A stretch of 58,443 nt of DNA, filler included, from Sphacelaria rigidula (GCA_964200075.2; 4 parts of 4 records of this genome joined end to end with filler, not necessarily neighbours in it), one strand, 5' to 3'. Positions 1 through 43,908 are shown, counted from the whole stretch's first letter. The notes: a model not told the origin generated them from the letters alone. Numbers and translations are program-made.

Positions 1-807
1 AATCCCCCGGAATAGTTTCAGGGAGGTCGAGAGGGATGCGGTCGTCCGTATAAAAGCTATTTGTCATGAATTTAGGTCAGGGAAAGCACGGCTTTTGAGT
101 TGGATCTCATTTTGTTTTTCAACCCCATTTCCGAGAATCCATTGTTATTTTCAAACTTTCATCAAGCTCAACACTTCCCCGATGGCCGCAGAGGAAAAAA
201 AGCGCACATGGCATACATCTAAATGGTCCGAAATAAATTGTTGGGTCTTCACGGCACCGTGGTATGCATCATGGACTAACAATGACAGGGAAAAGAGAGA
301 ACCTTTGAGGCGTGCGTGGAAGATGCGCTCCGTACAGTCAGAGAACCGGAGTGTCGCACTTCCCTGCGAATGTCGAATGAAGGAACCTCAACCTGAAACC
401 CGAGGTTCTCAATGTATCTAACGCTGGTATCTCAAACTTGAGGTTCCCGGTATACTTAGCAGTTACGGTTGAATGTATTGGACATCTCGGGTTTGAGATT
501 CCTCTGATGACAATCCCAGACGCGTATACGTAGAACGGTGAAGGGCGTCGCGGGAGTGTCCAGCCGACATGTATCTTGCCTCTTCGCCTTCTGGTACATA
601 CATTCATACGTGCGACACATACATGTGCAACAGACGCATTCACTGGGTCAGGTACCAAAATGCAGAGTGGAGAGGGTCACGTCGGTGCTGTACACCCCCG
701 TCAGGCGCTTCACGGTGCTGCGTACGCGTCTGGGCGGTGTCAATCACCATTCACGCTTGTGGGTGACTGATGATGGAACTCATCATTGTATGTGATGAAT
801 TTACGTA

Positions 808-1356
808 CAGTAGTGGGCGGTCTAACTATTCAGGGGCGTTTTGGGGTTTTCCTCGCATACTACTCTCCGATAGAACTCGAAATTGCTAGCGTTGGTAGAT
901 TTTGGTACAATAAACATATCATCCCCGAAACACAATGCTCAAGTCAGTGTTGGTTGGTGCTATCGGGCGATACGAGTAAATACCCCGTTTATCGGGAGAG
1001 TGTTATCGACCGTGGAACACACTGTTTCGGCTCTAGTGCAATGAGTAGGTAGAATTTCAAGAAAACAAAATTGTACATTTTTCACAAATATGATCGGGAC
1101 AGGCTCGATCGACCGAAAATACCGAAGAGTAAGAATCTGGGCTGAAACGGGGCAGGACCCTCGATGACCGGTCAGCCCGTAAGTCGCTCAATATTTATTA
1201 CAGCTATTTTTTATCTCTTGGAATTTGGAGCGGATACAAATAACTTCAGATCCCTAATGAGAGAAGCGGTGGCAAGCGAAAAGAGCCCAAGAAAATTGCC
1301 AGTTACGAGAAAATCACAAAGTGCCACAAAATGAATAGTTAGACCGCCCACTACTG
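808..1356. mobile_element. Tc1/mariner-type MITE (non-autonomous)
   Basis: Perfect 25-bp TIRs CAGTAGTGGGCGGTCTAACTATTCA at 808-832 and 1332-1356, with TA on both sides (806-807, 1357-1358). No coding capacity inside. Confidence 0.85.
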
Positions 1357-1660
1357 TATACAGTACTGCCTCTCTGCAGAGGACGAACCTTTTCGACCAC
1401 TCAGGGCGAATGAATGGATTCAAATCTCTGATCGCTCGGGTAGGCAGTGGTTAAACCGGCATTTTTCGCAAATGAAGAAGGGCAACTGATGATACCGATT
1501 CAACGCATCGTCTACGCTGGGTGTGAAGGGATGAAGGCGCCATAATTTGATAAATCTCTCTTCACGTAGAGGAAGTTCTTGGTTGTTCGAATCATACCGT
1601 ACAGCTCCTATGGGTGAGAACGGGACTTCGTCTTCGCTTTCCATCTGTGATTCACATGGT

Positions 1661-2082
1661 ATGAATGTAACGTGTATATTTCTTACCTGCCATCAATGCG
1701 GCATGAATCAAGCGTACATCTTTCTCACCTGCCATCCATATGGCATGCATCAAACCTGAATGTTTCCTAACTCCCGTTTATATACGTCATGAATCCTACG
1801 TACAGGTTGATATCCCACCATTTTTAAGGTATAAACCAAACGTACACATCATCCACCTTTCATTTGTATGTCATGAACCTTGCGTACAGAGTTCTATCCT
1901 GCAGCTCGTACGCCATGAATCCAACGTACACATCCTCCACCTTCAATTCGTACCCCATGAATCACATGCCCATGGTTCCCATCTATCACTCATTCGTCAT
2001 GAATTACGCGTACGTATTCCCCACTCGCGATTCGCGCGGGATGAACGGAATTGATGTTTTTCACTAGTGATGCGCAAAAAAA
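1661..2082. repeat. Degenerate 42-bp tandem repeat, about 10 units
   Basis: An ATGAA-like anchor recurs at 1661, 1703, 1745, 1789, 1831, 1873, 1915, 1957, 1999 and 2041 (period 42, once 44). Confidence 0.75.
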
Positions 2083-2398
2083 GTGTGACTCATACGTGTG
2101 TTGTACTCTTTGTTCGTATGATACATTCGGAACATACACAATCCCTTTTGCCATTCGAGCGATACTACCCCGAAAGTATGTTTTCCCATCTGTGGTTCGT
2201 TCAAGATGAGTTTTTGATACATGCCTTACTCGACACTCGTAACGAGTCACCTCGTGCGGATCTTGATTCGTCCAAAATGTGCGTTGTCTCATTTCCTATG
2301 TGTACGTCTACCGACACCCTACAACGAGGACTCAGCAATGGTCCACTGCATCGTACGCTCGAAAGCCGGTAACCGGGGTTGATTCGTCAGGAAGATGT

Positions 2399-5300
2399 TC
2401 ATTTTCTGGCCCCTTTATTCTGCGAGGTGTGTCCGCGAAGTGATCGCCTTTGGTGGATCCCGCCGCCTGCAATATTGATGCATGCCCCCGCCGACTTGGG
2501 CAGTTAGCGGCCAAAATATCGGGATCCGAATTCATTCATTTCCTCCGCAAATACGACATATCAGAATCCACGCGCCACGTGCTCTCCCAGGCTAGCGTCT
2601 GCGAAAGGGAAGGGCATTCAGGGGAGCGACAGGATCAGATTGTTCGCTCCGCGAAAACGGTTGTTCAGACTGCTGGATTTATCGAGAAAGGTTCCGTTCC
2701 CCTCACAATTGTTGAACAATGTTTCCACCGCTCGCCCGACCACGTTGTGTCTGGACGCATTAAGCATTTTCAAACTTCACTGCGGATGACATCGCCGTAC
2801 CTTGTGAGTGGTACTGATATCAGATGGATCATAATGTATTAAATGAGGTCGAGGACTTACTGCAGGAGTAGCCTGTGTGGCCAGGGATGCAAGACTGGCC
2901 TGGTTCGCCACACAGCTCCACGCCCTCAATCTCGCAGCCTTCATTGCAATACAGCGCCGCACAACGGGGTTGTCAACACGGCGACGAGTGCCAAACAATG
3001 TCAAGTTGATCAAAGGATGCAGACGAGAACGACCATGACATGCTGAAAGTGAGCCACTCTATGAGCATACGGTTGTCATCGGTTTGCTTCACGCAGCTTC
3101 ATATTTATCGCCGCCCTTGCACTGTCCGGATCCTCGCTCATGTTGTGATATCGATTTAGCTTCGTGATTGCTCGAAGGCACAATGGTGGCTGGTGAGACC
3201 CCCGGAAGTTTGAGCAAGAAGTCATGCATGGGGCCATACTTTGATTCAAACACATGAGCTAGGCTGGGTCGAAATCAATTGGCGTCAAGTATAAACGCGG
3301 TGCTTTTGTGGCTGAGCTACGCATATCACAACAGTTCTGAGAGCCCACCACACTCTCACCACATGAGGCATTCGACGCGGTTGCGGTGCCGGTGTTGCGC
3401 GCTCTCAGGTGCACCTCACTGTGGATTCGCGGAAAACACAGTGTGCACGAGGATCAACGAGCGAAACAACGCGTTACAGTCGAGGGTCACGCCGATCGTC
3501 CCCGTTCAAGGGAATCATCCGAACAGTGTTTCAGGGTTATCAACGTATGAGAACCTAGCGCACGAACAACTCCTCTTTTTTCCAACCAAAGTAAGGGGCC
3601 CATTCGACACCAGCAGTCTACCATAGTTGAACTGTTCGCGTCGACACAAACCAAGGACGCCATCACATTATACGGCGTTGTACCGCGAAGTGAGAACGCT
3701 TCTGTTGGTATGTCTCGTCGTTAGATGCGTCAAGACCGTGACTGAATTTTGACAGATGATAGTTTGAGGCATGGCCGTGGTGGGCAGCAAGCAGCCTAGG
3801 GACGGTGGCGCGAAAAAACAAGGCGCGTGACAGCACTGTGTAGTGTGTTACAAATCTAAGACGCGTTACCGGGTTGGAGATCGCGCTCACTTGGTGATGA
3901 TGGGGATACACTCCAGATCCTTGTTGTTCGACAAATTTCTGTCCAAAGAGGTCACGGCACAGGCATGAAACAGGAGAAATGGGGCAGTTGGTGACGGCAT
4001 TCATCAGCCTCGAAAGTTTGACATTGAACGTCACAATATACGAGAACAAATGGCGTACATGCCTCAGTTGGCCACGGCGAGCTCGCACCGATCAAACACA
4101 AAGGATTGGGTGGGTCGGCTGACAGTTTACCGTACCATTCCATTGGACGGTAGGCGTGCCCACGCATTCACACACTGAATATTGCTACGCCTAGCAATTA
4201 CCGCAGCAATGACCCATCCAGTACCGGGTAAACATTCAATCGCATACAGTAGGTTGGTACACCAACGTTTCATGTTATACACACTCTTGAAGAGGTTACA
4301 CTGGAACCGGCTGCGCAGCCCTTGCTGCGAGATAGCGTGTAAAATGCCCCTACTGGGTGTAGCATGCTTTCCCAAGTTTGTTTGCATCTGGTGCTGTACA
4401 CGATGGGATGGTGTGGGAAGAACACGCATGGGGAATCTGAAACCCGATCCACCATGTCGCGTGGTTTATTATTATTTGTGGTTACTCACATATAATCCAG
4501 CTTGTTCAGATTAGAGAAGAGGGCGGTTGGCAGCACAGTCAGGTCGTTGTTTCGTAGAGACCTAGGGAAACGGTGGGTGCGGGAGGCGGTCGTAGATGTC
4601 CAAGATGTGATCGAAGGGGCGTGGTATTTGCCACATAATTGCTCGGCGGAAGAAACTTGGGTTGGATAGGGTATCGCGACACGAAGCAGCGGGTAAATCG
4701 GGCAGGGTGACCGCGACTAAAAAGACGTCGGTAGCCAGCTCAACGACCAATAGCACACAGCGTGGAAAAAATATACTTCAGGTCGGTCGTCCGCACTCAA
4801 GCATTGAAGGACCCTACGACGTCACAAACACGCAAGGCCACAAATGTGGTGTTCAGCAATCGCCAATCTTTGCTCTCACAGTCCCTGGAGGTTTGGTACA
4901 CCCGAGAAACAGTCATCCGGTAACATCTTCAGCTGGTTTCTTGACATATCCCTATGCGCGCGAGGAACGTCGGCAGCGGGTTGCAGGAGGAATGCGGCGG
5001 TGAGAGGGGCATGCTGGATTTCTGCGGGGTTCGCGGGTCGCAGAGATGTAACCGTTATTCAACGCCAGATTTGGAAGGGTGGGATAATTGCTTTTTGGGC
5101 CAACCGGGATTTGGCGAAAACGCGACACAGGTGGGATGAATCGGAGAAAAACAACCGAATCCGGAACACGTCACTGATCTCCTTAGGATCGTTACTGGCG
5201 CCCGTTTGGGGAGCAGAAAGGCGGACAACTGGGGAACATAGTGGACAAAAAGGGTGAAACGTCCGCAAAATATGCTCGCCCTCGCTGGTCCCTGCAGGCG

Positions 5301-8300
5301 AGGGTCGGCATAATTTATGACGAACGGGGTTTTGGCAAAACCCTTGGCTCGAAGGCGCCGTATGCGCATCTTGCGCTGGCGGTCACCTCCGTTTTTCATA
5401 TTCAGCACTGCGCGGGGGGTGGGGCAGGTGCGATTGGCGACAACAGTCTGTACGAAACCGTCCTGCACAGTGCCGTACTGTGCGGGTCTGTTGTTTAAGC
5501 AAAAAAAAGTCGCCTTCCTGACGGAACAACCCCGCGCAATATATCTAAAACTTCCCCCTTCTTCGTGAACGGTAACCCTTACTCACAACCATGTCAGACC
5601 CCATAGATCGCCCGGACAGGACTTCAGCTGATTGTCGCTCATTTCCCTGCAAATTAGCACGAGGAACGTTCATAGACAGACGTCGAGGGGACGCAAAGCT
5701 GATAGTTACACTTTCAGTTGGGTCGATGCATCGTCTGTTCGGGATCAGGAACACAGCGCAATCACAGTAACTCAGGCGTAGCTTGTGAGTGGTGCAGTAC
5801 AGAGTCGAATCACTAGACCCGTGAATGTCAACTGCCTGTCGCGAGACGGTGCCACAGTTACTCTTTGGCTCAAGCGCTCGAGCGGCAATCATCCTACTCT
5901 CATTGCCACTAAAATGAATGGCAAAATACTCTTCCACCGTGGGTCCGACCTGGACCATTCAGTCCACCTTTTTCGACCACTCGCATGTAGCCCCCTATCG
6001 TAGAGCAAAGTAAAACATCGCGATCGTGTGACGCATGTAGGCCGACCCTCCCCTCCCTTCCCTAGCGAACGCGCTCAACATCTTGCACTCAACGGCACCA
6101 CTACTCTCAGCCAAGACTGTCAGGGTGAAGCGCAAGACGCCTTACCATGGTACACACTCACAGACGGCGAAGGTGCTTGAAGCCAGAGAGCGCCTGTTCC
6201 GGCCATGAGGAGAAAATATTCGCGGTCAAGATCCTGTGGCATTTCGTCGGTGCGTTTAGGTCACACAGTGGGAGATCAAACGACAACAGCCCAAGTCCTA
6301 GTACGTAACAATGTCAGGGTTTCGTCGGCAAGACACGCCGCGTGAAGAATTATTCTCTCTTTAAAAATCTGGCAAGGACCTGAACAGGTTCTTTGGACCA
6401 ATGATAAAATCATGAGTCGTTGCGGACGAGTTCCGCCGTCAGCAAGAAGTGCGTAGCAATTGAAACTGTGCTGTGCAAGGGCCAGTGCATAATCGCGGGG
6501 GGAGCGGTCCGCAGCGAGATTATGTAGTCTGATGCTTGCGAGTATGTACACACAAAGCAGTAGTGGAGCACGACGAGGTTTGCTCTGAGAACACGGGACC
6601 TTACAAATTGGGGGGATGGATCTTTTATTGGGGATGAGAAACCCGGAGAATTCAAATCTTCGTGTCTACACCAAATCTTCGAAATATGGTTCCATTTCTT
6701 CACCTACTGATAGCTATTGACAACTGCTACACGCCGTATAAATTTGGATTTCGATCGCCGAAATGTTGGGGTTCTAGGTGAAAAAACAATTTTGGTGGTT
6801 ATGGATGTCCGAACGGACGCCAAACTGATTCCGAAAATGGCAAGATCTCACTGAACATAATCACGGACCACTGCACTTCGATGGCATCGAAACATCCTGC
6901 GCTAGACAAAACGTGTGGGGCATTGAGAACGAGTACTCACAGAGTGTGCAGGTTCGGCACGTGCGACGCCATGTCATCCGGCAACGTGCTCAGGGCATCT
7001 CCAGTGAGGATCCTGAACGCACGACATACGAGACATCGCAAGAAAAAGCGGTATGTACGGTTAAAACGGAAGACCCCGTGAGGTTTTGCGACAAAAGTGA
7101 CGCCTACACACGAGTAGCACTCTTCTACGGTGGGTTAGTCCTGATTTGCATTCCGCCTTGTTGACATACACATGGTGCGTGTTGAAGCATTATGTATTAC
7201 AAATGAACATTTGCTAGCTAGTCGCGAAGGAAAAGCAGAAAGAGAGCACCCGAAATCAGTCTGTGCGCGTTTCAAACTAGTCCTAGGGTCACGTTCCCAT
7301 AGTAGTACGTATAACTTTGGTTTGTGCTTATACGCCGTGTCCCGGTGGTCCAAGTGATGTACCGTCAACCGATTTCGTAGGCGGATTCCATGTGTTCAAA
7401 CCCTCGACATATACTTGTATGCTATTGGTATATATATTCTGAGTGCGGTCGTCAGAAGCATGAGGTGATGAGCGACGGAACAAAATATGGATGAAACTTG
7501 ACTGACTCCAGGAGTGCTGACCCAATGCCCGATGGCGGGTTTTCAAGGAGGTACCGGGGGAGAGATGATTTGGACCCTTCAGACTACGAGCGACTCCGTT
7601 CCGGTGACAGGGGGGAAGTAAACGGCGGCAAGAGAATAAGGAACAAAATCAGAGAACACGGATTGTTGGGAGGCTGGTGTTGTGTGGTGCTGTCTCACTA
7701 GACAATTTTAGAAAGGATACGCAGTGGTTGCAAAGGATCGCAACGACTGCGAAGCTCACTTGCGTTTTGCAGCGAAAGCTAAAATTCAGACGGTGTTCAC
7801 GGGCGCTTTTTGGCCTAAACAAAATACAACATGGTCTCTTCTCAAAGCAGAAAGCTGAAGAAAGCTGGTCGAGATGAGGGCGTGGAGGGAGTAGAGAGCA
7901 GTAGGGGTCCAGATCTTCGAACTCAACCTGCGATCAATCTTTGAACAAGAATCGCTCATGCGTCGCTAGGGACGCGTACGTCAAACCAGATCATTCCTTT
8001 TCTGGTGTGCTTCATAAACTGGGTCCATTTGCCTGTGCGCATGGATTGGTGAAAGAGGCGGTTCTTGGTACAAGACGAAGAGGTATATGAAACGAGAATC
8101 AAAGTAAGCGACATGAACCTGCCAGAAGCGCGTAGAATCTATACATCCCTATTCGGAAATGAATAATGCCACGGCAGGGTTGCACGTTTGAGCCCAGACG
8201 ATTCTTGTCGAAAGGCTCCTAAACCCAGGAGCTACAGAAGACTATGTATCAGGGCAATTCCGTCGTAAACTTCAGTCGAGATTCCCTAGCCCATCGGAAC

Positions 8301-11300
8301 CCTACTCGTAGCGTGCTCTCACATATTTTGTGAGTCGTTTGCTGGATGAGATAAAGTGCTCCTAATAATTTAAACCTGAGAAACCTCTTCTGCAATGCTA
8401 CCGTGGCATGACTCAATCACCGCTCGGATCCCGGCGAGCGGGAAATATTCGTTCGGGGTGTGGGTAGTACGGCAAAACCGCCGTCGGGTTGTTAGGGTGC
8501 CGGGACTTGCTTGTGAGCAGAGCGCGTCGCAATTATGTTTCGGAATGAACACGTCAGGTTTGGTCGTCGCCTTGGGGTGGACGAGAAATGAGCTTGCAAA
8601 AATAATCCGTTCTCCGGATGCCATGGTTGCTGTAGCTAGTGGTTTGATGAGGGGCGCGCGCCCACTGAATGAGGTACATCACATCCTCGGCATATACATA
8701 CCCAATAGAAAAAATTGGGAAGGCCGTTTAGAAATGTATGAAGAACGAGGAAACGCCAGATTCGGTATACCTCTGGAATTTCCGACTATCGAGTGTACAG
8801 GGTGGACTTGAGGAAAAGCTCCATTTTGCGCACGGACCGCACGAAGTCAGGACGCGTTTTAATCCCGTTTTGCTTCAAGGCACAAGAGCGCCACATATTC
8901 CCAGTTCATGCACCCGAGGAATTTAGACCGAAACCGGTGTTCCTGGCGCGTTTTCACCATTCTGCACATCTGGTGCGAAATCGTACCTTTTACAGGCAAG
9001 GCGTGAACATATACCTTGTTTAGTCTACAGTGCTTCGACCACTCACAGAACTTTGAGACTCTTCAAGCCGGAAAGCATTCCCCCCGGCCACGTGAAGCGC
9101 GATTGCATGAAGAGCCTGGTCACGGACGTGGGGGAGGCGAGTCAACAAGCGAATGCCGTCAGGAGACCAACCACCAACACGATCACACAACGATTCAGCA
9201 CCAACATTCGCCACGCTGCTACCATGGCCATTACGATGGCATCCGTCAATACGCTGTGCCGTGCACTGCCAAGGCGCTACCTGGTTATCTCGGCTACGAT
9301 ATCTACCAACAGTAGTCTACTACGCATGCTGTGCGGTATAAACGCACAGGGAACGGTGTCCACCAGGTGCCGCCAAACGCACTCCAAAGTATTTCTTTGA
9401 GATGCTATGGTGATAAATGTTGAGGGCTACGGTGCTGGGGTGGACAGGAACTCAATAATGTACGGCCAAACGCAGTTCAAAGACGGATGCTAATGCTAGA
9501 GAGATGGCTGTGCACTTCTGCTCCGTTGTTGCCGCAAAAGTAATCAACGACGGCAAAGTTCGCTGACTCGTTCATGCACTCACAGTTGCGTAAGATTCTC
9601 CAGAGCAGAGAAGCACCCGGGAGAAAATTCAGCGTCCTGGATGTTTAGAAAACCCCTGCTTGGCACAAAACAAATGTGAGCTCGCAAAAAATGCTGATAC
9701 CGGCCAGGACACCAAAAAAGTTGATACAGCCGTGTGTTCGAGCTAGGATAGTGGACAGCAAGACCGCCGGCTTTGCTTTGCAAAACAGCAGCAAACCGTG
9801 ATGATACTGTATTGCGGCGATCATCAACACAAGGAGACATCGCGTGCCGAACAACCCATGGCCGCACAAGAAGTGGCGGTGAAGTCCTTACCGTCACGCT
9901 AGCGTGAAGAAATGTCAGCACCTCTACATATATATATATATATCTGACCGCACAATTCGTACGAATGAGCAATAGTCGTGGAACTCTTCGTGAGCATGAC
10001 ATCATCACCGCATGGTGCTAATGTTCACACACACAACGGCTAAGGGAGAAGCCTCTGGCGATTGCGCTTTGACACGCCTCTTCTCGGATGCAGCATGTTT
10101 CCGGCCATTTTACAACCCGCGGCCCTACAACACAGTGCCCTCTACACAGAGTACCAACGGCGGTAGTTAGCCGGGTGCGAATTTCAGTGGAGACATTTCC
10201 CAGAACGAACTCACAACGCTTGCAATGCGGGCAGTCCGGAGAACGTACGCTTGGTCAATGCAGTCAACTTCGGCTCGTCAAATGTTCTGTCTCCGACCGA
10301 CCGGCAGATAATTGCAGGTGGTGCCCAGGAAGGCGGTAGACGGAGCATCGTGGGCGGAATTCAACGAGCGGGAGGGAAGAGGGTAAGGTATCGGCGAACA
10401 CCATATAGCAACAAAGCTTCGACTGGAAACATTCGTGACAACATGCTGAGCCCGTAAACCTGCCTACATCAATAGCACCGAGGTCTCGAGACTACACTCG
10501 GCAGGAACCATGATGTGCCTGAGGTGGATTGTCGAACTGTCAACCGGAACGACCTCGACAACACTGATCGGCGCTTTACTACAACATTCGACACGGCAAG
10601 AGCGACATGATAAGTAGACCATTTTAACCGCAGGCGATAGCGACGCCCACTATCTAAACAATACTCGCCGGGCGAGGGTACGCGGCGATTTGATGAGGTC
10701 TACGTAAGCTATGCTGTGGTGAGCTACGCGACCCTCACGCATGCGTGGAGTATGCGACATCAGATCGCTACCGCCCGGTCTCCCCCGCTATTTCGCGACA
10801 GCCAACTCCTGCATGCGACATCCAGCATGGGTTCTCGGACACATGGTAAACTTTGGTTCCACTCACAGGTGTGTAAGCGCAGTCAAGCCATTTAGGCAAC
10901 CTTCCGGTAACGACGTCACTTGGTTTCGACGGAACCTCCTGTTGTTGGGCAATCCATGGTGCGTATACAAAACGCGTGGCAGCGATGTACAGAGAGTAAG
11001 CGATCAGAAACATTCCTTGATTTTTCTACCTCATACAGGTCACCCATTTATTCGTGACCATCCAGACACAGGTAGCTTCTTACAGGGTTGTACATAGACT
11101 GTGGCCGTAGAAACGAAGCATGCAAACCAAATACACACATCGCACCACAGCATGAACGAGGCCGTCACAGTGCATATGGGACCCTTATTTCCCGATATTT
11201 GGATGGATCGCGGTTCTGAGGGTTCGCCCAGCCTGTGCAGCGCCGTTGTGGGCCACTCCCTCTCACCCCTGTTACTTCTCTCCTTCACGCTCGAAATAAA

Positions 11301-13029
11301 TATATAGGCTCTACACTCACAGGTTCGTGAGGTTCGCCAGGGGCGAGAATATATCCTGCGGCAGTGTTGTCAGGGCCGTGTCCGAAATAGCCCTACCGAT
11401 ATTTTGCACATCCCCACGGAGAAAGCATCACAACAAGGTAAAAAGGCAAGTGGGGGGTAAGTCAGTGAACCGCGCAAGACCGGTGCTGTGTCGCCATCAG
11501 GTGCGTAATACGATCCAGCGGGCAACGATAGTATGTCACCGAGCAAGCAAGCCTACGACGAGTATACGCTCAATCAGCAATACTCCGGCCGCCACGAGAT
11601 TTGGTTCCAGCGCTTTAAATTTTGGCCCTTGGTTGTCGCAACCACCTCTCTCCAATACAAGCGGTTGTGTGTGTGGGAGTTTCGCATTGTCGTACAACTT
11701 CTATCTGGGGTATCATATCCATCTAGGGTATGAATGCCCATCTGGAATATGGACATCGATCTGGGATGTCCGTCTCGAATATCACCTCCGTTTGGGATAT
11801 CCACCTGGGATGTGGACGTTTGTCAGGTACATGGATATCCACCTGCGATGTCCCCCTGGGGTGCCCATCTAGGGATTTGGTATGCCGTTGTCCCGGATGG
11901 ATGTCTACATCCCAACTGGAGGTCAATATCTCAGAGGATATCTCAGATGGACGTACATATCCCAGGGCATCCTAGATGGATCTGACACCTCACGTGGACG
12001 TCTAATTGTGACACCTACATCACAGATGGAGGTTGCACGGTCACGGAAAATCGTAGTACAGGTTGACAAGACTTTTGATGGCTCGCAGCGGCACGTTTTC
12101 TTCAATGGAAACGTATGAGTGTACAACTTGCTATGTATCGCGACAGAAGCGCTTGATATAGTTTGGTAGATCAACGGCCGGTGAACGCTGCCTGGATGAA
12201 TCTGAGGGGTAAGATATTCGACCATCAGTTTTTCTGTATTCTTGAGATTTCGGATAATTTACGAGACCAGCGCTTGAGGGAAAAGTGCCTGGGAGAATTT
12301 ACCACGCTTACAATCAGTCTCTGTTTTTTTCGGCATCTAAGACTTTGGAAATGTGAATAACAATCCTCTCTGAACAAAGAATAGGCTGTATTTCTTGTGC
12401 CTCGCCAACCTAATGGGTTGCCTGCTATTTCAGGGCTTTCCCGCGCAGCCAGCGTCATCCGAGCTGTCCTCGTCAATCCTCACCGTTTCGGTTCCTTCGT
12501 GCACACATACTCGCCCGATGAATTCCAAACATATCTCTAGCTCCACACCGTTTGAAGTGGGGTTGAGGGGGGTACCACAAATTGAACACGTGAGCGAAGG
12601 TTGGGTCGGCAAACAGCACCACACACAACTGTGTGCAAAGCAGCTTCAAAGGCAGCAGTTCTGCAAACCGTGATTCCAAAGGAGGAACAGTGACCCATGT
12701 GTACAGCGTTTTACCATCCTTGATACTAGTGGTAGGAAATACAGACTTGAAATCGTTGCTTATGCACCGCAACAGTGGGGGCGGAAGTGCACCAGGGAGA
12801 GAGATGTCGCGTACTCTTGAAGCCAGAGCACCGCACATGTAGGATCGAGTGATAAGTGGAGTAACTCTACTCGCTACGTCTTCATACCGAAGCTGTTGTA
12901 TCTATACTTTGCTGTGTCATATCTGCCACCGATTTTTATTGTTTTACCATCACTTACAAGTATTTCAGCTGTCCAAGTCCAGCAAACACACCCAGGGACA
13001 GGGATGTCAATCGGGAGCCCCGTAGACGC
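2399..13029 (-). CDS. Leucine-rich repeat protein, one LRR per exon, with C-terminal Cys-rich module (5' end not found)
   Basis: AG/GT-bounded phase-2/phase-2 exons: 13029-12958 RLRGSRLTSLSLGVFAGLGQLKYL; 11392-11321 AISDTALTTLPQDIFSPLANLTNL; 10938-10867 RFRRNQVTSLPEGCLNGLTALTHL; 10286-10215 TFDEPKLTALTKRTFSGLPALQAL; 9655-9584 GFLNIQDAEFSPGCFSALENLTQL; 9115-9047 (69 nt) LFMQSRFTWPGGMLSGLKSLKVL; 7012-6941 ILTGDALSTLPDDMASHVPNLHTL; 6233-6162 ILTANIFSSWPEQALSGFKHLRRL; 5646-5587 (60 nt) EMSDNQLKSCPGDLWGLTWL; 4951-4880 DMSRNQLKMLPDDCFSGVPNLQGL; 4561-4490 SLRNNDLTVLPTALFSNLNKLDYI. These are followed by 3938-3891 NLSNNKDLECIPIIT, 3418-3360 EVHLRARNTGTATASNASC and 2938-2861 GCEIEGVELCGEPGQSCIPGHTGYSC, with a tentative last exon at 2466-2399. 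All phases join in frame and the LRR junction codons give L or I. Confidence 0.88.
11700..12030. repeat. Degenerate foldback-like repeat cluster in an LRR-gene intron
   Basis: Many variants of a GATATCCAYCTGGGAT-like motif, forward in the left half and reverse-complemented in the right half. Confidence 0.5.
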
Positions 13030-14049
13030 CTGCCGAGACGACGGTTCGAGACAAAACACAGGGCACGGCATGACACGGCACGGCACAACACGACACGGCA
13101 CCAACACGATGACATGGGCAACGGCACAATTGTAACATCGTCTCACACAGAGTACCTTTTCAATTTTGTCGACGGCTGTCGAATGCTAACTCGTGCCAGA
13201 AGGGAGCCAGCCAAGAGACCTACGGCTCAAGATCGCTGCCATGCGCACATGGCAAATACATGGGGTGCTTGCGGGGCGATGGGGAGGGGGAGGTGGGGGG
13301 GCATAGGGTGCCGTTTATTGTTGTCCATAAGGAGAGATGTGTAACAGGTGACCGTGTTGGTGAGGTCAATCGTGCCTTTTGTCACAGTCGTTCGGTTTTT
13401 ACGGGTGTGTGCCTTACTTGAAAGTAGAGATTTCGAAACGTCAGGATGATGTTGTGTTTGCTTTTAGCGGTGCAGCACCCGCTAATTGGTTGACATGTAT
13501 CGGTTAAGGGCGTGTCACTAGGCGGTCAGATATCGACAAAGATACACGAGCTTGTCTGTGGTGGACGCATACACCCAGCGTGAAACTGGAGTTCTGGGCT
13601 GGGCTCCGCAACCATCGACAACCTCAGCAGCACACGAACACCATGACGAATCGGTTCCGTACCATTGCCTCGAGCTATCTAAAACTCATGGAAGGGCAGT
13701 CGAAGAACATGATCTCCTGTAGCGTTAGTAGCACATTACTGGGTGCTGTTCTGCACGCACGTGGAGCTTCATGCCACACGAGACAAAGAAACTTTGCAAC
13801 TAGATATTCCGAATCTATGAGAATATCTTGTGGGCGCTGATATGACTATGGAGGGCGAGAGGGATCAACCCACCTGTCCCCCGGTGCGTCTTACATTTTT
13901 AGTATCGTGGACCGGATCATGACCAATCCCGCACCGCGTCGACTGTTGTTCAATTACCTCAGTCAAACAGGCTCTTTATGCTACTCACTTTGCTGTGTTT
14001 TCAACGACGGCAATCACATACTCGTACTGCTGACAAAAAAAAGTGAAGT

Positions 14050-14140
14050 GGAAGTATCTGGTGAGAACCGAACCCGCGTCTTTTCGGACCTCATGGTGTC
14101 AGTTGAGCCCATATACCACCGGGGGGCATACGCCGTGGGC
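14050..14140 (-). other. Possible tRNA-derived (SINE-head-like) relic
   Basis: The minus strand has an A-box-like TGGTATATGG and a B-box-like GGTTCGGTTCTC at tRNA-like spacing. No convincing cloverleaf. Confidence 0.25.
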
Positions 14141-14536
14141 GTGTACAATACAGCTGACACCCCAACCATGAACACAGGTTCTTTCATATAATTCGAGTCA
14201 ATCAGTAAGTGTTTAAATCCTCCAGGGAACGTTCGCACATAGTCCTCAACCGTCAGCCGTCTTTCGGCAGGAACTTCGACGGTACATGCCTGTAATTTCG
14301 TCTACCTTGCATGCTATGGTCCACTGCCGCGCTGTTTCCACATTGGCAAGGGACATCGGTTTCGGCCCAGATCGTTTGCATCGGTCAGATACATCCGTCG
14401 CTGGCGCAGTGTAAGCGAACTGTGGATTAGCTAATGTACGGCCACGTCGTCCGCGAAAAATGCAACCGGGGGGGGGGGGGGACGCATTTGCTGCTTGACC
14501 GATTGGATTTGCGACGGTGCGGGAATAACGGTAGAG

Positions 14537-14636
14537 NNNNNNNNNNNNNNNNNNNNNNNNNNNNNNNNNNNNNNNNNNNNTTAATTAATTAANNNNNNNN
14601 NNNNNNNNNNNNNNNNNNNNNNNNNNNNNNNNNNNN
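14537..14636. other. Artificial contig linker
   Basis: 44 N + TTAATTAATTAA (stops in all six frames) + 44 N. Confidence 0.97.
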
Positions 14637-20292: not shown

Positions 20293-23200
20293 TAATGTTT
20301 CGTGTACGGAGCGCAACCGTGTCGAACCCTGGCTTCCCGTCGCTCAGCGGGTTGGGAAGGCACCCCAAGCAACAGCACCGGTGAAGCGCCACGAGCGTGA
20401 CCGACAGTGGGCTATCCTTGACCATTTCCCAGTAGCCCCCGGAGCAGCCGAAACTTTGGTGCGCTCTACGCGTCACCCTCGGCGGGCCCCTCCAGATGAC
20501 CCTGTAGATATCCCTGATGATGCAATTGCACCCATCCACCACGATCGTGAACGGGTGTGGGTTCCATTAGATGAAGGTTATACTGTCGACAAGGCCGGTG
20601 TTTCCAAGATTCCGAACAGATCAACACTGCTCCCTGCCGATCCCTCACGAACTATGCTAGAATCCACCACTAAAATGGCGGTGTTATCTCTTGGGTCAGA
20701 TACCTCGCTGCCAGTTAAGTGTTCGTCTCCTTGTCACGCAAACCCCCCGTCTGAGTCTTCACAACTGAAATATAGCGTGGTGATCGACGAGTCGTCCATG
20801 CTTGACCGCTCGTCTCCTATTTTACCAATAGTGGTCCCAACTGACACGAGTAGCAAGTTGATGAGTGTAGACAAATCGCCTCCACCCTTTGCCGAAACGT
20901 CCCCTGGTTTGCACGTAGTAGATGCTGCAACCTCACCAGCTTCGCAAACTGACGCTTCGCTGCTTGTTGCGGCCGACCGAGGTATCCCAAACCAAACGCG
21001 ATAGTTGTCGCGTTCAGCCACGACAACTGCCCTTCCCAGGATTCGCTCATCCCTTACAGTATACGAAATTCAACATTCGACGGATTCCCCAACAGCTGTT
21101 CAAGATACTCCGTGCCCCAACCCACCTTCGGACAGAGATCTTGCTCGGAAGGATCATCGGCGTGTGTATTTCAGCGCAGTCGCTCACAATCACAAGCACG
21201 GTTTGTCCACAGATTTCTTGCTAGAATTTAGACCGGATCTATTCAGCAGAACTGCAATCATAGATGATGCCTCCTTCACAACGAAAATAGGTGTACATAG
21301 TGGAATGAATGCAACATGTCCTTAATCGAGCTCGCCCCAAACGTTCATCACCACCAGCTGCTGGCAACAAATGATCAAGGCGGAGGCTGCGGACACGCGT
21401 TGCGTTTCTACGGTTCCCCTCGTGTCTTTGGCGGGTTTGGTCCCTCCACTTCACTCGCGGTGAATCCATCAGTGAGACTTAGTGTGCAATTTTTCGATGA
21501 CACGGGTCCGACTGCTCGATTATCCGTGTGGGAACTAATAGTGCCTGATGGTTCCATGTTGCTTCATGTTTTGTTGGGGCGTGATGGTTGGCTACGCTTT
21601 TTCTCATACATACGAGTCGGACACACCTGCTCTACACCATCCCAAGCCTGGCAGATTGAAATTGGGATATCACGACACTGCTTCGGGGGCTCATGCCTAT
21701 GTCAATGATCCAGCCCAAACAGGTGATTCTTTGCGACTACATTATGTTGGCGAGAACGTAGCTTCCCTATCCCCTGGATCCCAACTCGTGCATGCGAACC
21801 TTTTGAGACGGAACGGACCCTCTGCCCTCTCTCGACAATACTTGGTCGAATTCATCAACCCCAAGCAGTCGGCTGATGACGCCGTTGCTATTGACCACAC
21901 CGAAGTATTCGTTCACGAAGGTAGAAAATCCGTCCCTCTCACATCCTCTGCATGTTTCGACATACTTCCCGGCCAGCTGTTGGGTTTTGCTCAGGCGCCC
22001 CTCCTACGGACAGATTTGTCAAACGTGTGTCTGGCGACCGAACCCAAAGCGTCACCAGACACGTCGATCAACGCAGACTCCCCGCCGTTAGACGAGACGT
22101 GCCCTCCTGTAGTGGACGAAGAGTCTAACGCACCTCACCCAAACCTCCCAGCTGCATTACGAGTTAGATTATCGTCAGAGCAACGTGTCAGTTGTCAACG
22201 TTTATGGGACGATATCCCCCCACATTTGCGACAAATTGCTTTTGATTTATCTGGTAAGGGTTGGAATCCCACGGTGATCGACAGGCTGCGCTTTATTTTG
22301 ATAAGATGTTCCGAACGATTCTCCAAGGCGCCCCTAGATTTAGGCCGCTGCACTACTACAGCGTTCAAGACCAAATTCCTGATGGCACGCCACCTATCGC
22401 TACGCGTTCGTACCATACAAACCCCCTCTTCTCGGATAGAAACCAGGTAATACTTGACAGGTCCCCATCCACCGCTTTAATGCGGCATTCCACGTCCCCG
22501 TGGGGCTCGCCGCTTGTTGTCGTCCAAAAAAAGAACAAAAAAAATACACCATCAGGCAATTCCCAACCATTGAACGCAGGCATCAAAATCGCACGTCTAC
22601 CTCTTCCCGGGATAGATAAAATCATTGACTCTCTCGATGGGTGTAAAATATTTTCGAACTTTGACACGCAGTCCGGCTACCACCAACTTGTGATGGACCT
22701 GCAATCTAAAGAATTGACGAATGGTTGGGAGCACCACAAGGTGACGCCGGCGCCCCCGGGGCGTTTCAACGTGTGATGTTTCGGGTGACTGATGGATTGT
22801 CCAAGAGCCATGTGTACCTCGATGGCGCGGTAATACACGGAAGGACCCCTTTCGAACACGTCGAGCCCTTGGCATCTTTCTTCGCTAGCTTCGAACAACA
22901 CAATCTGGAACTTGCCCCGTCCAAATCCCGCGTTGGAACGGCTAGCATCGAAATATTGGGCTACTGTATCACTCCTGAAGGTCGTAGGCCTAACCTCAAC
23001 AAGGTTGCCGCACTTACAGGTATGCCCATGCGACGGGATACATCTCAACTTCGCTCCTTGCTCGGCGGCTTGAGCTACTACCGACAGTATTTGCCGAACC
23101 CAGCCCAAACCCTCGAACCTCTCACCTCCGTTCTAGAAAAAAGAGTGAAATTCGCGTTTACGTCAGAAATGGAGAGAACAGTACGTCAATTGCCACACTT

Positions 23201-26200
23201 TCGCGACCACCAATCTTGGTTTTCCCAGACTGGTCGGCCGCTGAAAATGGTTCGCGTCCGTTCCAACTTCACACGGATTTCTCCAAAATTGGGTTTGGCT
23301 GCATGTTGGAACAGGAGCAACTGGATGCTGATATTTGCTTCATTATATATTTGAGTCGAACCACTACCTACCTAAACGAACAAAACTGGTAGGTCATGGA
23401 GTAAGAGGCCGGCGCGATAATTTGGGGAGTGAGACGTCTCCGTCAGTACTTGTATGATATTCCGTTCGTGATTTATACAGATGATTAGTCTTTGGAAAAC
23501 CTCGCCAAAATGGCGGAACACAGCGCCCGGGTTCTACGCTGGTTTGAAATCCTTTCTTCTTAGAGCTTCACGCGGAAGTATCGAGCAGGACCTCAAACGT
23601 AAACGCTGATTTTCTCACTCGATTGCCCATACCGGCCCAACCCATCGACAGCTCCAGCTTGGGACGCATCACGGATCCCACCGAAGACATTGTATATTTC
23701 ATTTGCAGAAATGGTCATAGCAGAATCTACACTCCACTCTCACTGAATCACGACCCGGCACTTGACATTGATGGGCTGATGACTCCAGCTCACGTTTCTG
23801 TCCTAGGCAGCATGCCACCACGATCGTTGTTTTCAGTTTGGAGTGGAGGTAGTACAAACCTGAGTGGGTATGATCAAGTCCGTGCAATCGGTCATCAAAT
23901 GATTTGTGCTGCAGATGTAGACTCGTCTTGTGCTAACTTCATCCTCCCGGTTCAAGTTCGAGATCTCATCTCGAGTAGAACCCAGGGACGGCGGGCCGTC
24001 GATACCGCCGCCACCCTGGCGGCCTCTGGCCAGGACCTCCCCATCCCGACCCCCATCCCGGTGCCCGATACTTTCCTTTCACCCCTCAACCACCGCGACG
24101 AAAGGCCCCAAGCAGATCAACCTCACCAGCACCCCTTGCTCCCATAGCCGAAGCCTCGGCTTTCCCCCCCTCTCCAGTGATGGTGTCCTCACTGATGCCT
24201 CATCATCCTATGCGCTAGTCGACCTAGGAATCGAAGACTGCGTTCCGCTTGAGGATACACTAACGGACCCCCCCGCCCACGATCCCAACATCCCTGATTC
24301 GAGTCAATACTGCCGTGACACCCTTCATTTTGGACAAACCATCGGATAATGTATTTGAGGACCGTTTGGCCATTTTCTCCCGCGTCGATTGGGCCAGGGA
24401 ACAGCAAGCTGAACCTGCTTGTAGAGCGACTGCGCATTTTTTATCCAAAGGCTGTCCGTCTCCTTTTTCAGCAACTGAATCCCTCTTGCCCGTTGGGAAC
24501 CACAAAGCCTCCATCCAGGATGAAGTCATTAAACTATCGCGAAAAGGTATGCTTCATACGGATGATGGCGTTGTTTTTTTGGTTCGCCGGCCCACAGCGT
24601 CCCTTCGTGTGGGGAAACCTAACAGTAAACATGCCTATTTGTGAGGTGGTGATTTCACAAGAGTTTATGTGTCGATGCTCCTGCGTCCATGAGTTCTCCA
24701 TGAATGCCATCCGCAAGCATCGACACACCTGCGAGTCGCTAGGACCTCCCAGATGCTTGAGCGTCTTTATTGGTGGATTTGCATGGATCACTGTGTACGT
24801 TGGTGGGTGAGGCGTTGTCTTTTGTGTCAGGCGCGCAAACCTTCGCGCCAAACGGTTTAATTGCCAGTTATTTCCATGTCAATCCTCAACAGGCCAGGTG
24901 AAGTAACCTCATGGGATTTTGTCGGTCCGTTGCCTCTATCTGATCGTGGTAACAATTACATTTTGTTGTTGACGGATCGGTTTAGTCGACACGCGGTGGT
25001 GCATGCTGTTTTTCGGAAACCAACTATTGTGCGGCAGGCACAGCCAACGTCCTTATGTACACATACATTCCACAATGGGGTGTACCCAAACAATTCTTGT
25101 CCAATAACGGCCCGCATTCCGCCGGCAAACGTTCTGCCGCGATCAGGAACCTCCAGGGTGCCCATTGCATCTTTACTAGCTCATACCATCCGCCCACAAA
25201 CGGTGGAACTGAACGAGTGAACAATACAATGGCTAAAATGCTTGCAATGGTAACCAATGAACGACAAATGGACTGGGACTTGCATTTGGCCCTCATTCAG
25301 ATGAACTCAAAGATCCAGTCAATGCCGCCACGGGACTGGCTCCCAATAAAGTTCATGTCGATCGTATGCCCGGGTTGTCACTGACGGGGTTCGAAAGGAA
25401 ACCTATCGGAGGCTATCAAAGTTTGGATCGAGATATTGCGGAGTACCATATTTCTGTTAGTAATCGTCTTCGTCTTGGGTATGAGGTGGTCCGTGAATAA
25501 AGCAAAACTAGTGCAGCGAAAATTGTCCGGGCAAATCCTGCTTTGGATAATGCGGTAAACAACCGTCCGGTGTGGGAAGTAGATCAATGGGCGGGTGTAC
25601 AATGATGTGAAAACCGTCACTCAGGGGGTTAGCCCCAATACGTCTTCGTTGGATAAGGTGTTGAAGTCGAAACTATCCTTGAATTGGAATGGTTCTTGAA
25701 AACACTTAGCGGTTGGGCCCTGTGATTCCGCACCTGGCAATAGTCCGGTAGGCAAGAAATTTTGTATTGGGATTTTCCCATGGATGAACCTGGAATCGAA
25801 CCCAAAAAACGAGTTTCGATGCTCAGGTGTTAACCGTGTCTGCCCCCACATGATGCAACTGACATGCCCAAACAATTGTCAATGGATCTCAATCAGTACG
25901 TATTAACCAACTATGCGGCCGAAGCTCCACCGTGTCACATGACGGTTGAAGATGCCACCGGCCCTATTGAGCGTGTGGTGGTAGATCGCATCGTGGGCCA
26001 TCAATTAGTCCGAGGTCGAGGAGGTAAAATAGGGTCATGTACGAGACACACTGGAAATGTGCTGTGCGTGTTACGTGGGAGCGGGAAGTTGACTTGCTCC
26101 ACTTTCGGAGAGAATCACTTCTGTATCGAGTAGGAGATGCTGTACAACACCGTCCGTTGAACAAACGCTATAAGTCCATGCGAGAGAGAGCAGCGGCCCG

Positions 26201-29172: not shown

Positions 29173-29272
29173 NNNNNNNNNNNNNNNNNNNNNNNNNNNN
29201 NNNNNNNNNNNNNNNNTTAATTAATTAANNNNNNNNNNNNNNNNNNNNNNNNNNNNNNNNNNNNNNNNNNNN
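29173..29272. other. Artificial contig linker
   Basis: 44 N + TTAATTAATTAA + 44 N. Confidence 0.97.
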
Positions 29273-30016
29273 ACCACGGCGCTTCGCGCTTGGTGATTGA
29301 GTGCGAGCCTGGTCCGGCGATAACCCGGCGTGCTCCGTCCCGGCCTTGTAGGGTTGCGAGGTCAATGGTCTTATGACTACGGCATACATGATCATGAGTA
29401 CATCCCCTCCTCCGTAAGCCTTGAAATTCAAGGTCCTGTGACTACGGCATGCAAAATCATGAGTACACCCCCAACCTAGGTAAATATCGTTCCTGTATTT
29501 TCGAGGGACATGTGGAAATGACCTTTCAACGCCGCCTAGAGGTCAAGATTTTTTTCTCGTCTTTCGTGCATGATTTTCAGCCCGACGGTATGCGGGTTCC
29601 CAGGTTCCATTTCCTTCGGCGAAGACTTTGTAGCTCAACGGAACGGCCCTAAAGTTACAGTTACACTGGATCCCCCACCGCTTCTGCGGCTCACTCAGCT
29701 GTGGATACGGGACTTTCCTGCCTTGATCGAGGTCAGACTCGAACTTGAGACTTTCCGGCCCAATGGTCAACACTTCTTTTAACAACACCGCCATCCAAAC
29801 AGACAACAGTCCCGTAAAAGCTCATGTTGTGGGAGTTATTCTTGTTCCCCTTCACCAGATTTTACGCACGCACTTGACACAAGATGACCATCTCTGCGGC
29901 TCCTAGTGGCGCCACGATCGTGTACCGCAATGCTCGGGTGCTACAGCACAGTTGCCATCACCTACGACGCAACTCTTTGCATACAACGGCAACAACTACC
30001 AAGAACCAGCACTCAC

Positions 30017-33000
30017 GGAAGCTCCGGTTCTGAAAGTAGACAGGGGCGGTGAAGTCCGCGGCCCGGCCGATACGGTCGCTCTTTCCGAACGGCGCGTAGG
30101 GTACGTCGAGGAATTGCTCTGGCAAAACCCTGTTGATACGGAGACGCAAGGTGCACATGCGCGCAGGACAGGCGGGTGTCGAGATATTAAGTGAACGCCT
30201 CAGCGTACGCATGTGGCCGATCCAGACTCACAACAGTACAGTGCAGTGCAACACAGCGCAGCGAAGCACAGTCAAGAAGTGTGCTGCTACGGTACAATGG
30301 AGGACCTGTGCAGCCAGCTGCTTCACACCACAGTACAGTAGGGTGTGCGCGAAATAGTGGTCGATTTGTCCATGGATATATCAACAACACAATGATTTAG
30401 GGCGTACGCTAACATTCGCATATTCAGGGAGCAAAAAGTCCCGAGCCGTCAATAGCGTGTGGTGCACGCGGGCCAGGCGTCGTCGATTCAAGCTTCGCCG
30501 ACGCACACCATGCCAACAGTACATGGCACGAGCCTCTCCTCCCTCCTTGCTTCCAAAAAATACGTGTTGCTGCAGAAAAAAATCCAGCTCCTAATTCTCA
30601 GTCGAGTTAAAAGCCTCTCAGGCGCAGGCTGCTGTTAAATTTCTGCATTATTTCGTCGTGCTACTACTGTAATTTTCACTATTCTTCATTCTTTGGCGCA
30701 CTCTCCGCATATGTGCGCATTGTTGGATGTGAAATCACGTGTGAAAAGTCACTCACATAAAACAGCGCAGCACACGAGGATCATATGTACTCCAACATAC
30801 GTTTCCCCCCACGCTGGTTGTCACTAAGGCAAGCAACAAATGAGTACGCCCCCCCCCACGCTGGTTGTCGGTCCGAACAGGGTCGGGGAGTTGGAATACA
30901 AATTGGATGTATCCCTTTAAAATATTTCCGAGCGTGGCAGTACGCAGAATAACAATGCCCAGTAATGCTGCGGCACCGAGATGGGTGCGAACGCTGACTC
31001 CGATTTTGTCACGTGCCGGGACAGCAGGCGATCTGTGGTGGGGGGAGCAGTGCCACGTGAAGGAGGAGCGAGTAGCTGCTTCTCGAGGATGCAAGGACGA
31101 TCACTGCAGGCACAACGGAAGCTGAACACGTCGTTCTATTCCAAGTCGCGCAGGAGCTGCTTTTCCTACGCTAGATGCGGGAGTTTATGATGTCAGAGTT
31201 GGAGAGTCACCTCATGACCATCAGGGAAGACGAAGGACCCATCAAATTGCCCAACGAGCACGCGAGCCGCAGGACGACGCCATCCGACGTCAAACATCAC
31301 ATCGTCTGCGACACGATGAGCAGTGGAAGGCCCACGTCATCTACGTTGAGACGCAGGAACAGCATGCAGATATTCTCACTCACCAAGCAAGCCCCTGGAT
31401 TTCAAGATTTTTCTCGATTATACGGGGGTTTTGATGGAACACAGAATACACTATATACTCGAAGGTAGGCGTTCTTCCAGGTGAAGTAGGGAGTACGAAG
31501 AGGGGATGAGGGAAAAAACTTGGAGTGTCGCAGAAGTCAAGTACGCTGTAGAGCAGGTGAGGGTGTCTGAGAATGATGACTTACACGGTACACTAGCTAG
31601 AAAACATAGTCGCTGACTCAGGTAAAACTGTCGTATCGATGATATACAAATCATCGTAGCGGGACGTACCGAGAGCATTTTATATATCTCAAATCGACAT
31701 CAGATCTACAGATAGCTACGGATATTGTGCGGAAAGCTCTCGACTGTTCTCTGGCAGGTTTCCAGAAGGTGGTTCAAGAAGAAATAGCTGGAGAATTCGT
31801 TAGATACGGCGTTCGCGCAAGACGTTGAACTTCACCTAAACCTCTCCTGACCTGGTACCCTATCCATATAATTCATAGTTCAGACTTCATCCCGAGTGTC
31901 CAGCAGAAGTATCGAAACAACTCCTGTCGGCCAAGTGTGATGGCCGACACCAGAGGGCTGAAATGGACATCCAAAAAAGCATGATAGGAGGAATGATAGG
32001 GGGAACCATCCCACACTCTCAAGGTACACGAACATCGGATCATCTTAAACAAGCTTCACCATCACCAGCTATCTGCTGGTGTTAAATAATAACAACAGCC
32101 TTTCAGTTCTGGAGAATGTTCGATTCGAGTTTTTTTCGCGTCGCTAAGAGTTCTGCAACTATTCCGCCCCTTCCTCGACTCCAATGCGTAATTCACCCAT
32201 GTTCTTTGCCGCAGTGACCCAATCGTGAGCGTCCTTGACCTACCCACAGTAGACGAACCATCTCGGCAGTGCTCTGTTGTATGGAATAGCCTCTGGTATA
32301 CTTAGATTGCCCTGGAGTCGTTCCTCCCAGTGTTTGAGGGGGGCGGCCAGCCTCGGAAGGCCCTAGTGCGGCGAACCATCCGAGTATGATACGCTTTGGA
32401 AGACGTGTTTTGTCCTGTATTACAAGGGCCCGCGTCAACCAGAGTTGACACTTGGGAATGTTAATCTCTGCACGGTTAGAACGAATCATCACGACTCAGA
32501 ATCACCGATTTCACGATTTCTTCGGCCTAATTGCCCAAAAGGGAGAAAAAATTGATCACTGGTCCAAGGGGTGCCCACGCAACTTTGCGCCATTCCACGT
32601 ATCTGGACTGCGTGTACCTGGGTTGCAAAGCTGAAATAAAGCCTAGGGATTGATTCNNNNNNNNNNCTAAAACCAAGTAATTTCCAAACGAATCAATATT
32701 TGTCCGACCCTTGCATCTCTGTACGAAATAGTAATAGTATCATACAGCTTGTTTGGTATCTCCTGCGGAATCCAACCACTTGCAGCAAAAGCTTGCGGTG
32801 GGGAGCGCGGAACGCGAAGACTGTCGAACTCCTCGGGAAACAGTGTTCATCTTGCACATCCGCACACCGTCCATGAGCGACAACGTCGGTAGTGCATGAG
32901 CAGCACACAGCTTGCCCGTTCCGGTAAATCTTGTCGATGCTGCACATGCAACTTCGGGCAGTGCGCAGGGCACCTTGAGTATCGACTGCCAATAGTAGTG

Positions 33001-43808: not shown

Positions 43809-43908
43809 NNNNNNNNNNNNNNNNNNNNNNNNNNNNNNNNNNNNNNNNNNNNTTAATTAATTAANNNNNNNNNNNNNNNNNNNNNNNNNNNNNNNNNNNN
43901 NNNNNNNN
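43809..43908. other. Artificial contig linker
   Basis: 44 N + TTAATTAATTAA + 44 N. Confidence 0.97.

Follow-up and report, generated by a model that had tools for sequence, protein, structure and literature searches.

Two kinds of 72-nucleotide (nt) exon that each encode a single leucine-rich repeat (LRR) have been described in the brown alga Ectocarpus (Zambounis et al. 2012, PMC3341825). The type I exons, which follow the pattern GxxPxxLxxxxxLxxLxLxxNxLx, build the ROCO genes and many LRR-only loci. They undergo intense shuffling, as seen in near-identical exons and in relics within introns that are inactivated or inverted. The type II exons, with the pattern xLxxNxLxxxxxGxxxxxxxLxxL, have offset boundaries and “cannot be mixed” with type I. 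They occur in 15 Ectocarpus loci, namely seven LRR-kinases, annotated as CTR1-like or tyrosine-kinase-like, and eight “hypothetical leucine rich repeat proteins”, for which the paper reports no tangible sign of shuffling and no reshuffled or inactivated exons. Here we analysed a stretch of 58,443 nt from the brown alga Sphacelaria rigidula (GCA_964200075.2), hereafter the window, which carries on its minus strand the 3′ part of a gene composed of single-LRR exons. By their sequence pattern, these exons belong with the “type II repetitive LRR exons” catalogued earlier in Ectocarpus. We consider it likely that the locus is an unremarkable, expressed gene of a brown alga that encodes a soluble LRR protein, and that its type II exon array is frozen and constitutively spliced.

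The exons were located by scanning the minus strand of positions 3600-13400 for units of the form AG/exon/GT[AG]AG with an inner frame open as 1 nt, codons and 2 nt. The scan retrieved 11 single-LRR exons exactly as an earlier reading of the bare sequence, the original prediction, had described them: nine of 72 nt, one of 69 nt and one of 60 nt. In 5′ to 3′ order, these are exon 1 (12958..13029), exon 2 (11321..11392), exon 3 (10867..10938), exon 4 (10215..10286), exon 5 (9584..9655), the 69-nt exon 6 (9047..9115), exon 7 (6941..7012), exon 8 (6162..6233), the 60-nt exon 9 (5587..5646), which holds a short repeat, exon 10 (4880..4951) and exon 11 (4490..4561). All 11 consist of 1 nt, whole codons and 2 nt, and are thus in phase 2 at both ends. 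Each acceptor is an AG, within CAG or TAG and followed by G or A, and the donors are GTGAG in ten exons and GTAAG in one. At exon 3 the acceptor is a tandem CAG/GAG, of which the upstream AG is used. The ten introns between these exons measure 318-2034 nt, matching the 0.3-2 kb proposed, and the longest lies just 5′ of exon 7.

These exons were compared with the contigs of three (X6-X8) out of four small RNA-like runs from one study and of one DNA run (X4), aligned to window positions 1-14500. X4 is labelled “algae metagenome” and contains 85% of the window words; X6-X8, for which there is no RNA record, were called RNA solely from spliced joints that X4 is without. Fourteen GT-AG introns (CT..AC on the plus strand) were present as joints in all three RNA-like runs and absent from the DNA run. 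The ten introns predicted from the sequence beforehand were all recovered, including the joint 11391>12957 that places exon 1, the most 5′ exon in the sequence. Four extra joints, 3938>4490, 3418>3891, 2937>3359 and 2598>2861, extend the gene downstream. The first two define a twelfth LRR exon (3891..3938) of 48 nt, read as 1+45+2, which encodes a truncated last repeat; the count of 11 was correct as far as it went, but it had passed over this exon, and the start given for the array, 3891, is in fact the 3′ end of exon 12. It is followed by exon 13 (3360..3418, 59 nt), a linker rich in Thr, Ala and Asn bounded by the joints 3418>3891 and 2937>3359 (the latter with its cut shifted by +1), and by exon 14 (2861..2938, 78 nt), a cysteine-rich module with four Cys, or five counting the Cys that closes exon 13. 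The last exon (1331..2598), defined by RNA contigs, contains 12 codons, the stop codon (2563-2561) and at least 1230 nt of 3′ untranslated region (3′UTR). At 1331, where the RNA contig stops, a high-copy repeat sets in.

The contig depth was 46-272 for the spliced forms and 2-35 for the introns, the spliced RNA being about tenfold deeper. The LRR gene is real, transcribed and spliced as read from the sequence, with spliced contigs in all three RNA-like runs; lack of expression had been named as an outcome that would speak against the original prediction. Three introns, 4562-4879, 4952-5586 and 9656-10214, also appear in full, still unspliced, in RNA contigs whose depth is roughly 5-25% of that of the spliced forms, and these retained introns represent either pre-mRNA or genuine intron retention. 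The break points of the RNA contigs arise from these retained forms and not from skipping, and the 15 best-supported of the 56 joints in the contigs of X6-X8 and X4 all link one exon to the next, with none that skips an exon. That any exon could be removed without a frameshift, as had been stated, is formally true, but such removal was not seen among those 15 joints. RNA cover is absent from 7261-8712, 11617-12584 and 13069-13552 in the contigs, the only form of the data compared here, which is not evidence of absence.

A few observations concern the repeats and variants within the transcribed region. Very high-copy repeats are located at 805-1358, at the end of the 3′UTR, and at 6612-6716, in intron 7; the summed contig depth over both in the DNA run reaches 10^4-10^5 compared to about 26 for single-copy sequence, and the contigs of all runs break there. 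In addition, a joint across 1722-2029 skips 306 nt, ends in TC..GC and occurs in all four runs including DNA, with a short side of 24 letters. Rather than splicing, this joint probably reflects variation in the 3′UTR, by a repeat or an indel.

The 5′ end of the gene lies beyond the available sequence. In the bin 12585-13068 the RNA depth is 41.0, 31.8 and 11.6 in the three runs, compared to 40.4, 31.3 and 11.4 predicted from the 72 nt of exon 1. The bin depth is thus that of exon 1 alone, so that the RNA cover ends exactly at the acceptor of this exon, and the transcript therefore continues from an exon that lies outside positions 1-14500. No RNA depth is recorded in 13069-13552, and from there to 14500 it stays between 0 and 1.7. 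The segment 13030..14536, on the minus strand, is probably upstream intron sequence: it shows traces of RNA cover only, and contains no exon, no LRR and no Pfam family. A 15-nt tandem repeat of 3.3 copies is found at 13058-13108, 29 nt upstream of the exon 1 acceptor.

Further upstream, the window is interrupted by runs of N at 14537-14636, 29173-29272 and 43809-43908, each of which reads N44-TTAATTAATTAA-N44 and carries stops in all six frames. These spacers recur every 14,636 nt and divide the window into four pieces of 14,536, 14,536, 14,536 and 14,535 nt, and GC and AT skew jump at the first of them. The run of N that precedes the LRR gene is thus artificial and does not mark a gap in the assembly; as the spacers join separate pieces, no feature may be read across them. 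An ATG-started exon resembling a signal peptide at 14776-14691 on the minus strand, which closes in phase 2 at a GTGAG donor and would fit exon 1, was rejected as unsupported, because it is on the far side of the artificial spacer at which the composition jumps. The stretch around it is rich in T. Its fit to exon 1 is probably a coincidence.

Joining the exons by script yields a 5′-open frame of 332 codons across 15 exons. The product comprises 12 LRRs, a linker of about 20 residues in which Thr, Ala and Asn are abundant, a five-Cys tail and 12 further residues, with 10 Cys in total and five N-x-S/T sequons. Each LRR exon reads x-[LIFM]-x-x-N-x-L-x-x-L-P-x-x-x-F-x-x-L-x-x-L-x-x, and the codon split by the intron supplies the next Leu. 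Alignment of the exon peptides gives a 24-residue consensus, LxxLxLxxNxLxxLPxxxFxxLxx, of the class named “typical” (Kobe and Kajava). A profile of the 12 exon peptides matches 147 distinct PDB sequences at E <= 0.001, and its top natural matches are typical-class ectodomains, namely those of LRRC15, LRRTM, lamprey VLRs, IGFALS, Toll, GPIb-alpha, Slit2, LGR4/5 and LINGO-1. In Pfam, LRR_8 is the only family matched, by four of the ten exon peptides searched (exon 9 being too short), including exon 10 (E=0.0052) and exon 11 (E=0.0065). All of these matches fall below the gathering score, as expected of single repeats.

Beyond the repeats, no signalling domain is apparent. The RNA-defined frame stops 57 codons past LRR exon 12, and a Pfam search of the 65 flanking minus-strand open reading frames (ORFs; at least 30 residues, up- and downstream within the piece) found no ROC, COR, Ras, kinase or other domain, LRR_8 matching just the ORF that contains exon 1. 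This agrees with the earlier statement that no ROC/COR or kinase domain follows the repeats. The ORFs examined gave no Pfam match to LRRNT or LRRCT, and the 332-residue product has no 19-residue stretch hydrophobic enough for a membrane segment (maximum Kyte-Doolittle mean 1.15). In the tail, the five Cys lie within the last 39 residues with the spacing C-x-C-x7-C-x6-C-x8-C, and the last four would fit the spacing of Cys 1-4 among the six of an EGF domain. The tail matched no Pfam family and no PDB entry at E <= 10. An EGF-like domain was not called here, since there is no Pfam or PDB match; the Cys series ends after the fifth.

The exon register sets this locus apart from the shuffled LRR genes of brown algae. 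Measured against the type II pattern, position 2 is hydrophobic in all 12 exons, position 5 is Asn in six of 12 and position 13 is Gly in four of 11; Leu at position 21 is nearly invariant, and the junction codon, which provides the final Leu of the pattern, is Leu in 10 of 11 cases. As in the Ectocarpus type II loci, one 24-residue LRR is encoded per 72-nt exon (nine of 12 here, with the junctions confirmed by RNA contigs) in the same register and in a brown-alga host, without extra or inverted LRR exons and without a sign of shuffling. Like the eight non-kinase loci among them, the gene has no recognisable second domain. The present gene differs from these loci in that three of its 12 exons are shortened (69, 60 and 48 nt) and in the cysteine-rich tail after the repeats, a feature not mentioned in the tables of the Ectocarpus paper (PMC3341825).

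The type I genes, by contrast, resemble this locus in layout only in part. The ROCO genes and the LRR-only “reservoir” loci share the 72-nt single-LRR exons of symmetric phase and the lineage (PMC3341825; PMC11378527). In the ROCO LRR exons, which are 72 bp long and alternatively spliced, nt 3-71 encode 23 residues (Teng et al. 2024, PMC11378527). LRR-only genes with type I exons are reported from 46 Ectocarpus loci and, in Saccharina japonica, as 15 non-ROCO, mostly LRR-only sequences (PMC3341825; PMC11378527). Unlike these, the exons here start at xLxxNxL and end at LxxL, the repeats are of the typical class instead of the plant-specific-like class of type I, no ROC-COR follows the LRRs, and there are no near-identical exons and no intronic or inverted relics. 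The codon split differs as well: by the numbering of PMC11378527 it is 2+69+1 in type I, and it is 1+69+2 here, so that a type I exon inserted at this locus would shift the frame. The connection drawn in the original prediction to exon shuffling in brown algae does not carry over, as the literature in question concerns type I (PMC3341825).

Similar exon designs are found outside the algae. LGR4/5 and Slit also have one typical LRR per exon of about 72 nt in phase 2, and the ectodomains of LGR4/5 and Slit2 are among the PDB matches of the exon profile. Vertebrate gonadotropin receptors share the typical 24-residue repeats and the one-per-exon design with phase-2 exons of about 72 nt, as noted in PMC11378527. 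These animal genes belong to a different kingdom, and the present gene differs from them in having no detected LRRNT or LRRCT caps, no seven-transmembrane domain and no EGF array. What they have in common is the class of repeat and the design of the exons, and does not reflect shared descent. Among plant proteins, PGIPs and receptor-like proteins also use an LRR solenoid as the binding part, and PGIP-like proteins are likewise without a signalling domain of their own, but their repeats are of the plant-specific class and are not encoded one per exon. Brown-alga LRR receptor kinases have a membrane segment and a kinase C-terminal to the LRRs, both of which are absent here.

The array looks old and static. 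Among the 36 pairs of the nine 72-nt exons, the nucleotide identity averages 42% with a maximum of 56%, the residue identity averages 27%, and neighbours are no closer than other pairs (0.425 for adjacent versus 0.417 for non-adjacent exons). Self-blastn of the 13.2-kb gene region returned no off-diagonal match. Scanning all six frames of the 58-kb window with an exon profile revealed no further LRR exon and no intronic or inverted relic above 9 bits; the profile was built from the 11 exon peptides, so that the scan is circular for those 11 and informative for the rest of the window. The DNA contigs of X4 are collinear with the window over all 15 exons, in the same order and with differences of 0.3-0.6%. 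In 1493-5501, the window and X4 differ at 27 listed places, all of them outside the 367 coding nt of this interval, where about 2.5 would be expected; with P ~0.07 this is not significant, and is a hint of constraint. With 42% mean exon identity, no relics, no skipping in the listed joints and the same exon order in a second DNA source, the modular, diversifiable protein that had been proposed finds no counterpart in these data.

The exons are nonetheless interchangeable in form. All 12 are of the type 1+3n+2, so that any subset keeps the frame, and all 144 pairings of an exon end with an exon start give Leu (120), Lys (12, each involving the end of exon 12), Met (10) or Ile (2) as the junction codon. 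Such a symmetric layout of one repeat per exon is by itself no evidence of active cassette diversification.

The gene most likely encodes an LRR protein that binds a ligand and is soluble and probably secreted. We propose that at least 12 typical-class repeats, each from one phase-2 exon, would form a curved solenoid, the concave sheet of which, where the variable x residues of xLxLxxNxL are located, may bind a partner, and that a disulphide-rich tail may cap the end of the solenoid. Since it would depend on others for signalling, the protein would most likely serve in binding or as a co-receptor, either secreted or wall-associated, comparable to the plant PGIPs and receptor-like proteins. The array itself would be the product of old exon duplications that are now frozen, and not an active cassette system. 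An extracellular location, which the original prediction had also favoured in assigning the gene to another class, is plausible in view of the typical-class repeats, of the ectodomains that are their best relatives of known structure, and of the cysteine-rich tail.

Several points weigh against this reading. The N-terminus lies outside the sequence, so that a signal peptide is unseen and upstream domains could be present. The register itself says nothing on location, because the names of the seven Ectocarpus type II LRR-kinases suggest cytosolic kinases. Rare skipping could escape detection, as contigs lose rare isoforms and the joints judged are the best 15 of 56; moreover, the three RNA-like runs all come from a single study. 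A tail that resembles just four of the six Cys of EGF may indicate a truncated gene. Finally, the homology searches, which used unspliced stretches, found no orthologue and no relative from a brown alga: the ORF with the cysteine-rich exon gave one candidate and no match in a word-based search, and a profile search with seven 40-residue reads (exon plus upstream read-through) gave 12 matches among 6137 candidates, none of them orthologous. These 12 were generic multi-LRR proteins, comprising unnamed records, an amphioxus LRRCT protein and a fish TLR22. The DNA of exon 1 was also not found in JGI metagenome contigs.

Three other explanations were weighed against the soluble, secreted protein. 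An intracellular LRR scaffold in the cytosol, related to the brown-alga type II LRR-kinases or truncated from one of them, and either deprived of its kinase or equipped with other domains upstream, is unlikely but survives best. It would be in line with the seven of 15 Ectocarpus type II loci that are LRR-kinases, CTR1-like or tyrosine-kinase-like (PMC3341825), with a product that has no membrane segment, and with the fact that no signal peptide, LRRNT or LRRCT is seen, the 5′ exons being outside the sequence. Against such a scaffold, the five Cys among the final 39 residues hint at disulphides and hence at the secretory pathway, the repeats score best against the LRRs of ectodomains, and the frame ends without a kinase, with no kinase ORF downstream.

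Somewhat less probable is a truncated and decaying copy that is still transcribed, in which a rearrangement or a repeat insertion would have removed the 3′ exons and left half of a cysteine module with a new short tail. The tail does stop after what would be the fourth of the six EGF Cys, exactly at an exon boundary, and continues into 12 unrelated codons and a stop, while the long 3′UTR runs into the high-copy repeat at 805-1358. The lack of an orthologue in searches with unspliced stretches would fit as well, as would the many brown-alga LRR loci that are pseudogenes (PMC3341825). However, the frame is intact over 15 exons, all 14 introns have canonical splice sites, and the spliced RNA is about ten times as deep as the intron contigs. 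The 0 of 27 differences from X4 in coding nt also point away from decay, although not significantly (~2.5 expected, P ~0.07). No nonsense-mediated decay is expected, because the stop is in the last exon.

The modular and diversifiable recognition protein, a candidate immune receptor whose symmetric exons would be skipped, duplicated or swapped by splicing or genomic shuffling, appears quite improbable: the frame-neutral exons, the uniformly L, K, M or I junctions and the variable positions that differ strongly among the repeats would all suit it, but the register is type II whereas the known shuffling is of type I, with which it cannot mix (PMC3341825) and whose 2+69+1 exon (by the numbering of PMC11378527) would break the frame, and there is no skipped exon in the best 15 of the 56 joints in any of the three RNA-like runs, no contig break beyond what three retained introns account for, no recent duplication, no intronic or inverted LRR relic, and no change of exon order in the second DNA source.

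The gene adds an RNA-validated example to the neglected type II LRR-exon genes, with little meaning beyond annotation. In a literature search, Zambounis et al. 2012 was the only paper found to contain both “type II LRR” and “Ectocarpus”. One could imagine, though we give it very little credence, that the protein is secreted and acts as a soluble partner or decoy of the brown-alga LRR receptor kinases, with condition-dependent skipping (e.g. upon infection) of the 12 frame-neutral exons altering the length and specificity of the solenoid. Such skipping would constitute a second, splicing-based route of diversification, separate from the type I/ROCO shuffling. A protein both secreted and alternatively spliced under attack would bear on pathogen recognition in brown algae; nothing here points that way.

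Apart from the LRR gene, the window contains several unrelated features, whereas scans of it with Rfam and for tRNAs gave no hit. A degraded Ty3/gypsy-like retroelement with broken frames occupies 22710-25217 on the plus strand, with an RVT_1 domain at 22710-23354 (+), an RNase H domain at 22994-23389 (+) and a weak integrase core at 24861-25217 (+). A comparison of its reverse transcriptase with the ESM Atlas yielded nothing on lineage. In the third piece, an exon for eIF3 subunit D is located at 29961-30227 on the minus strand (Pfam eIF-3_zeta, E=1.1e-6). Over 42% of the 89-residue query it shows 100% identity with a protein from an Ectocarpus species, and it is 85% identical to one from Tribonema minus. 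With the algal run labels, this points to a genome within or beside the brown algae, provided that all pieces share one genome. An open frame of 470 codons at 38731-40143 (+), Ala/Ser/Pro-rich and of low complexity, lies in the GC-richest part of the window and belongs to no Pfam family. Two ORFs with CBM_1 (fungal-type cellulose-binding) modules lie at 46333-46641 (-) and 47839-48360 (-); in the latter, a long linker rich in Pro and Thr precedes the module, suggesting a gene for a secreted wall-binding protein.

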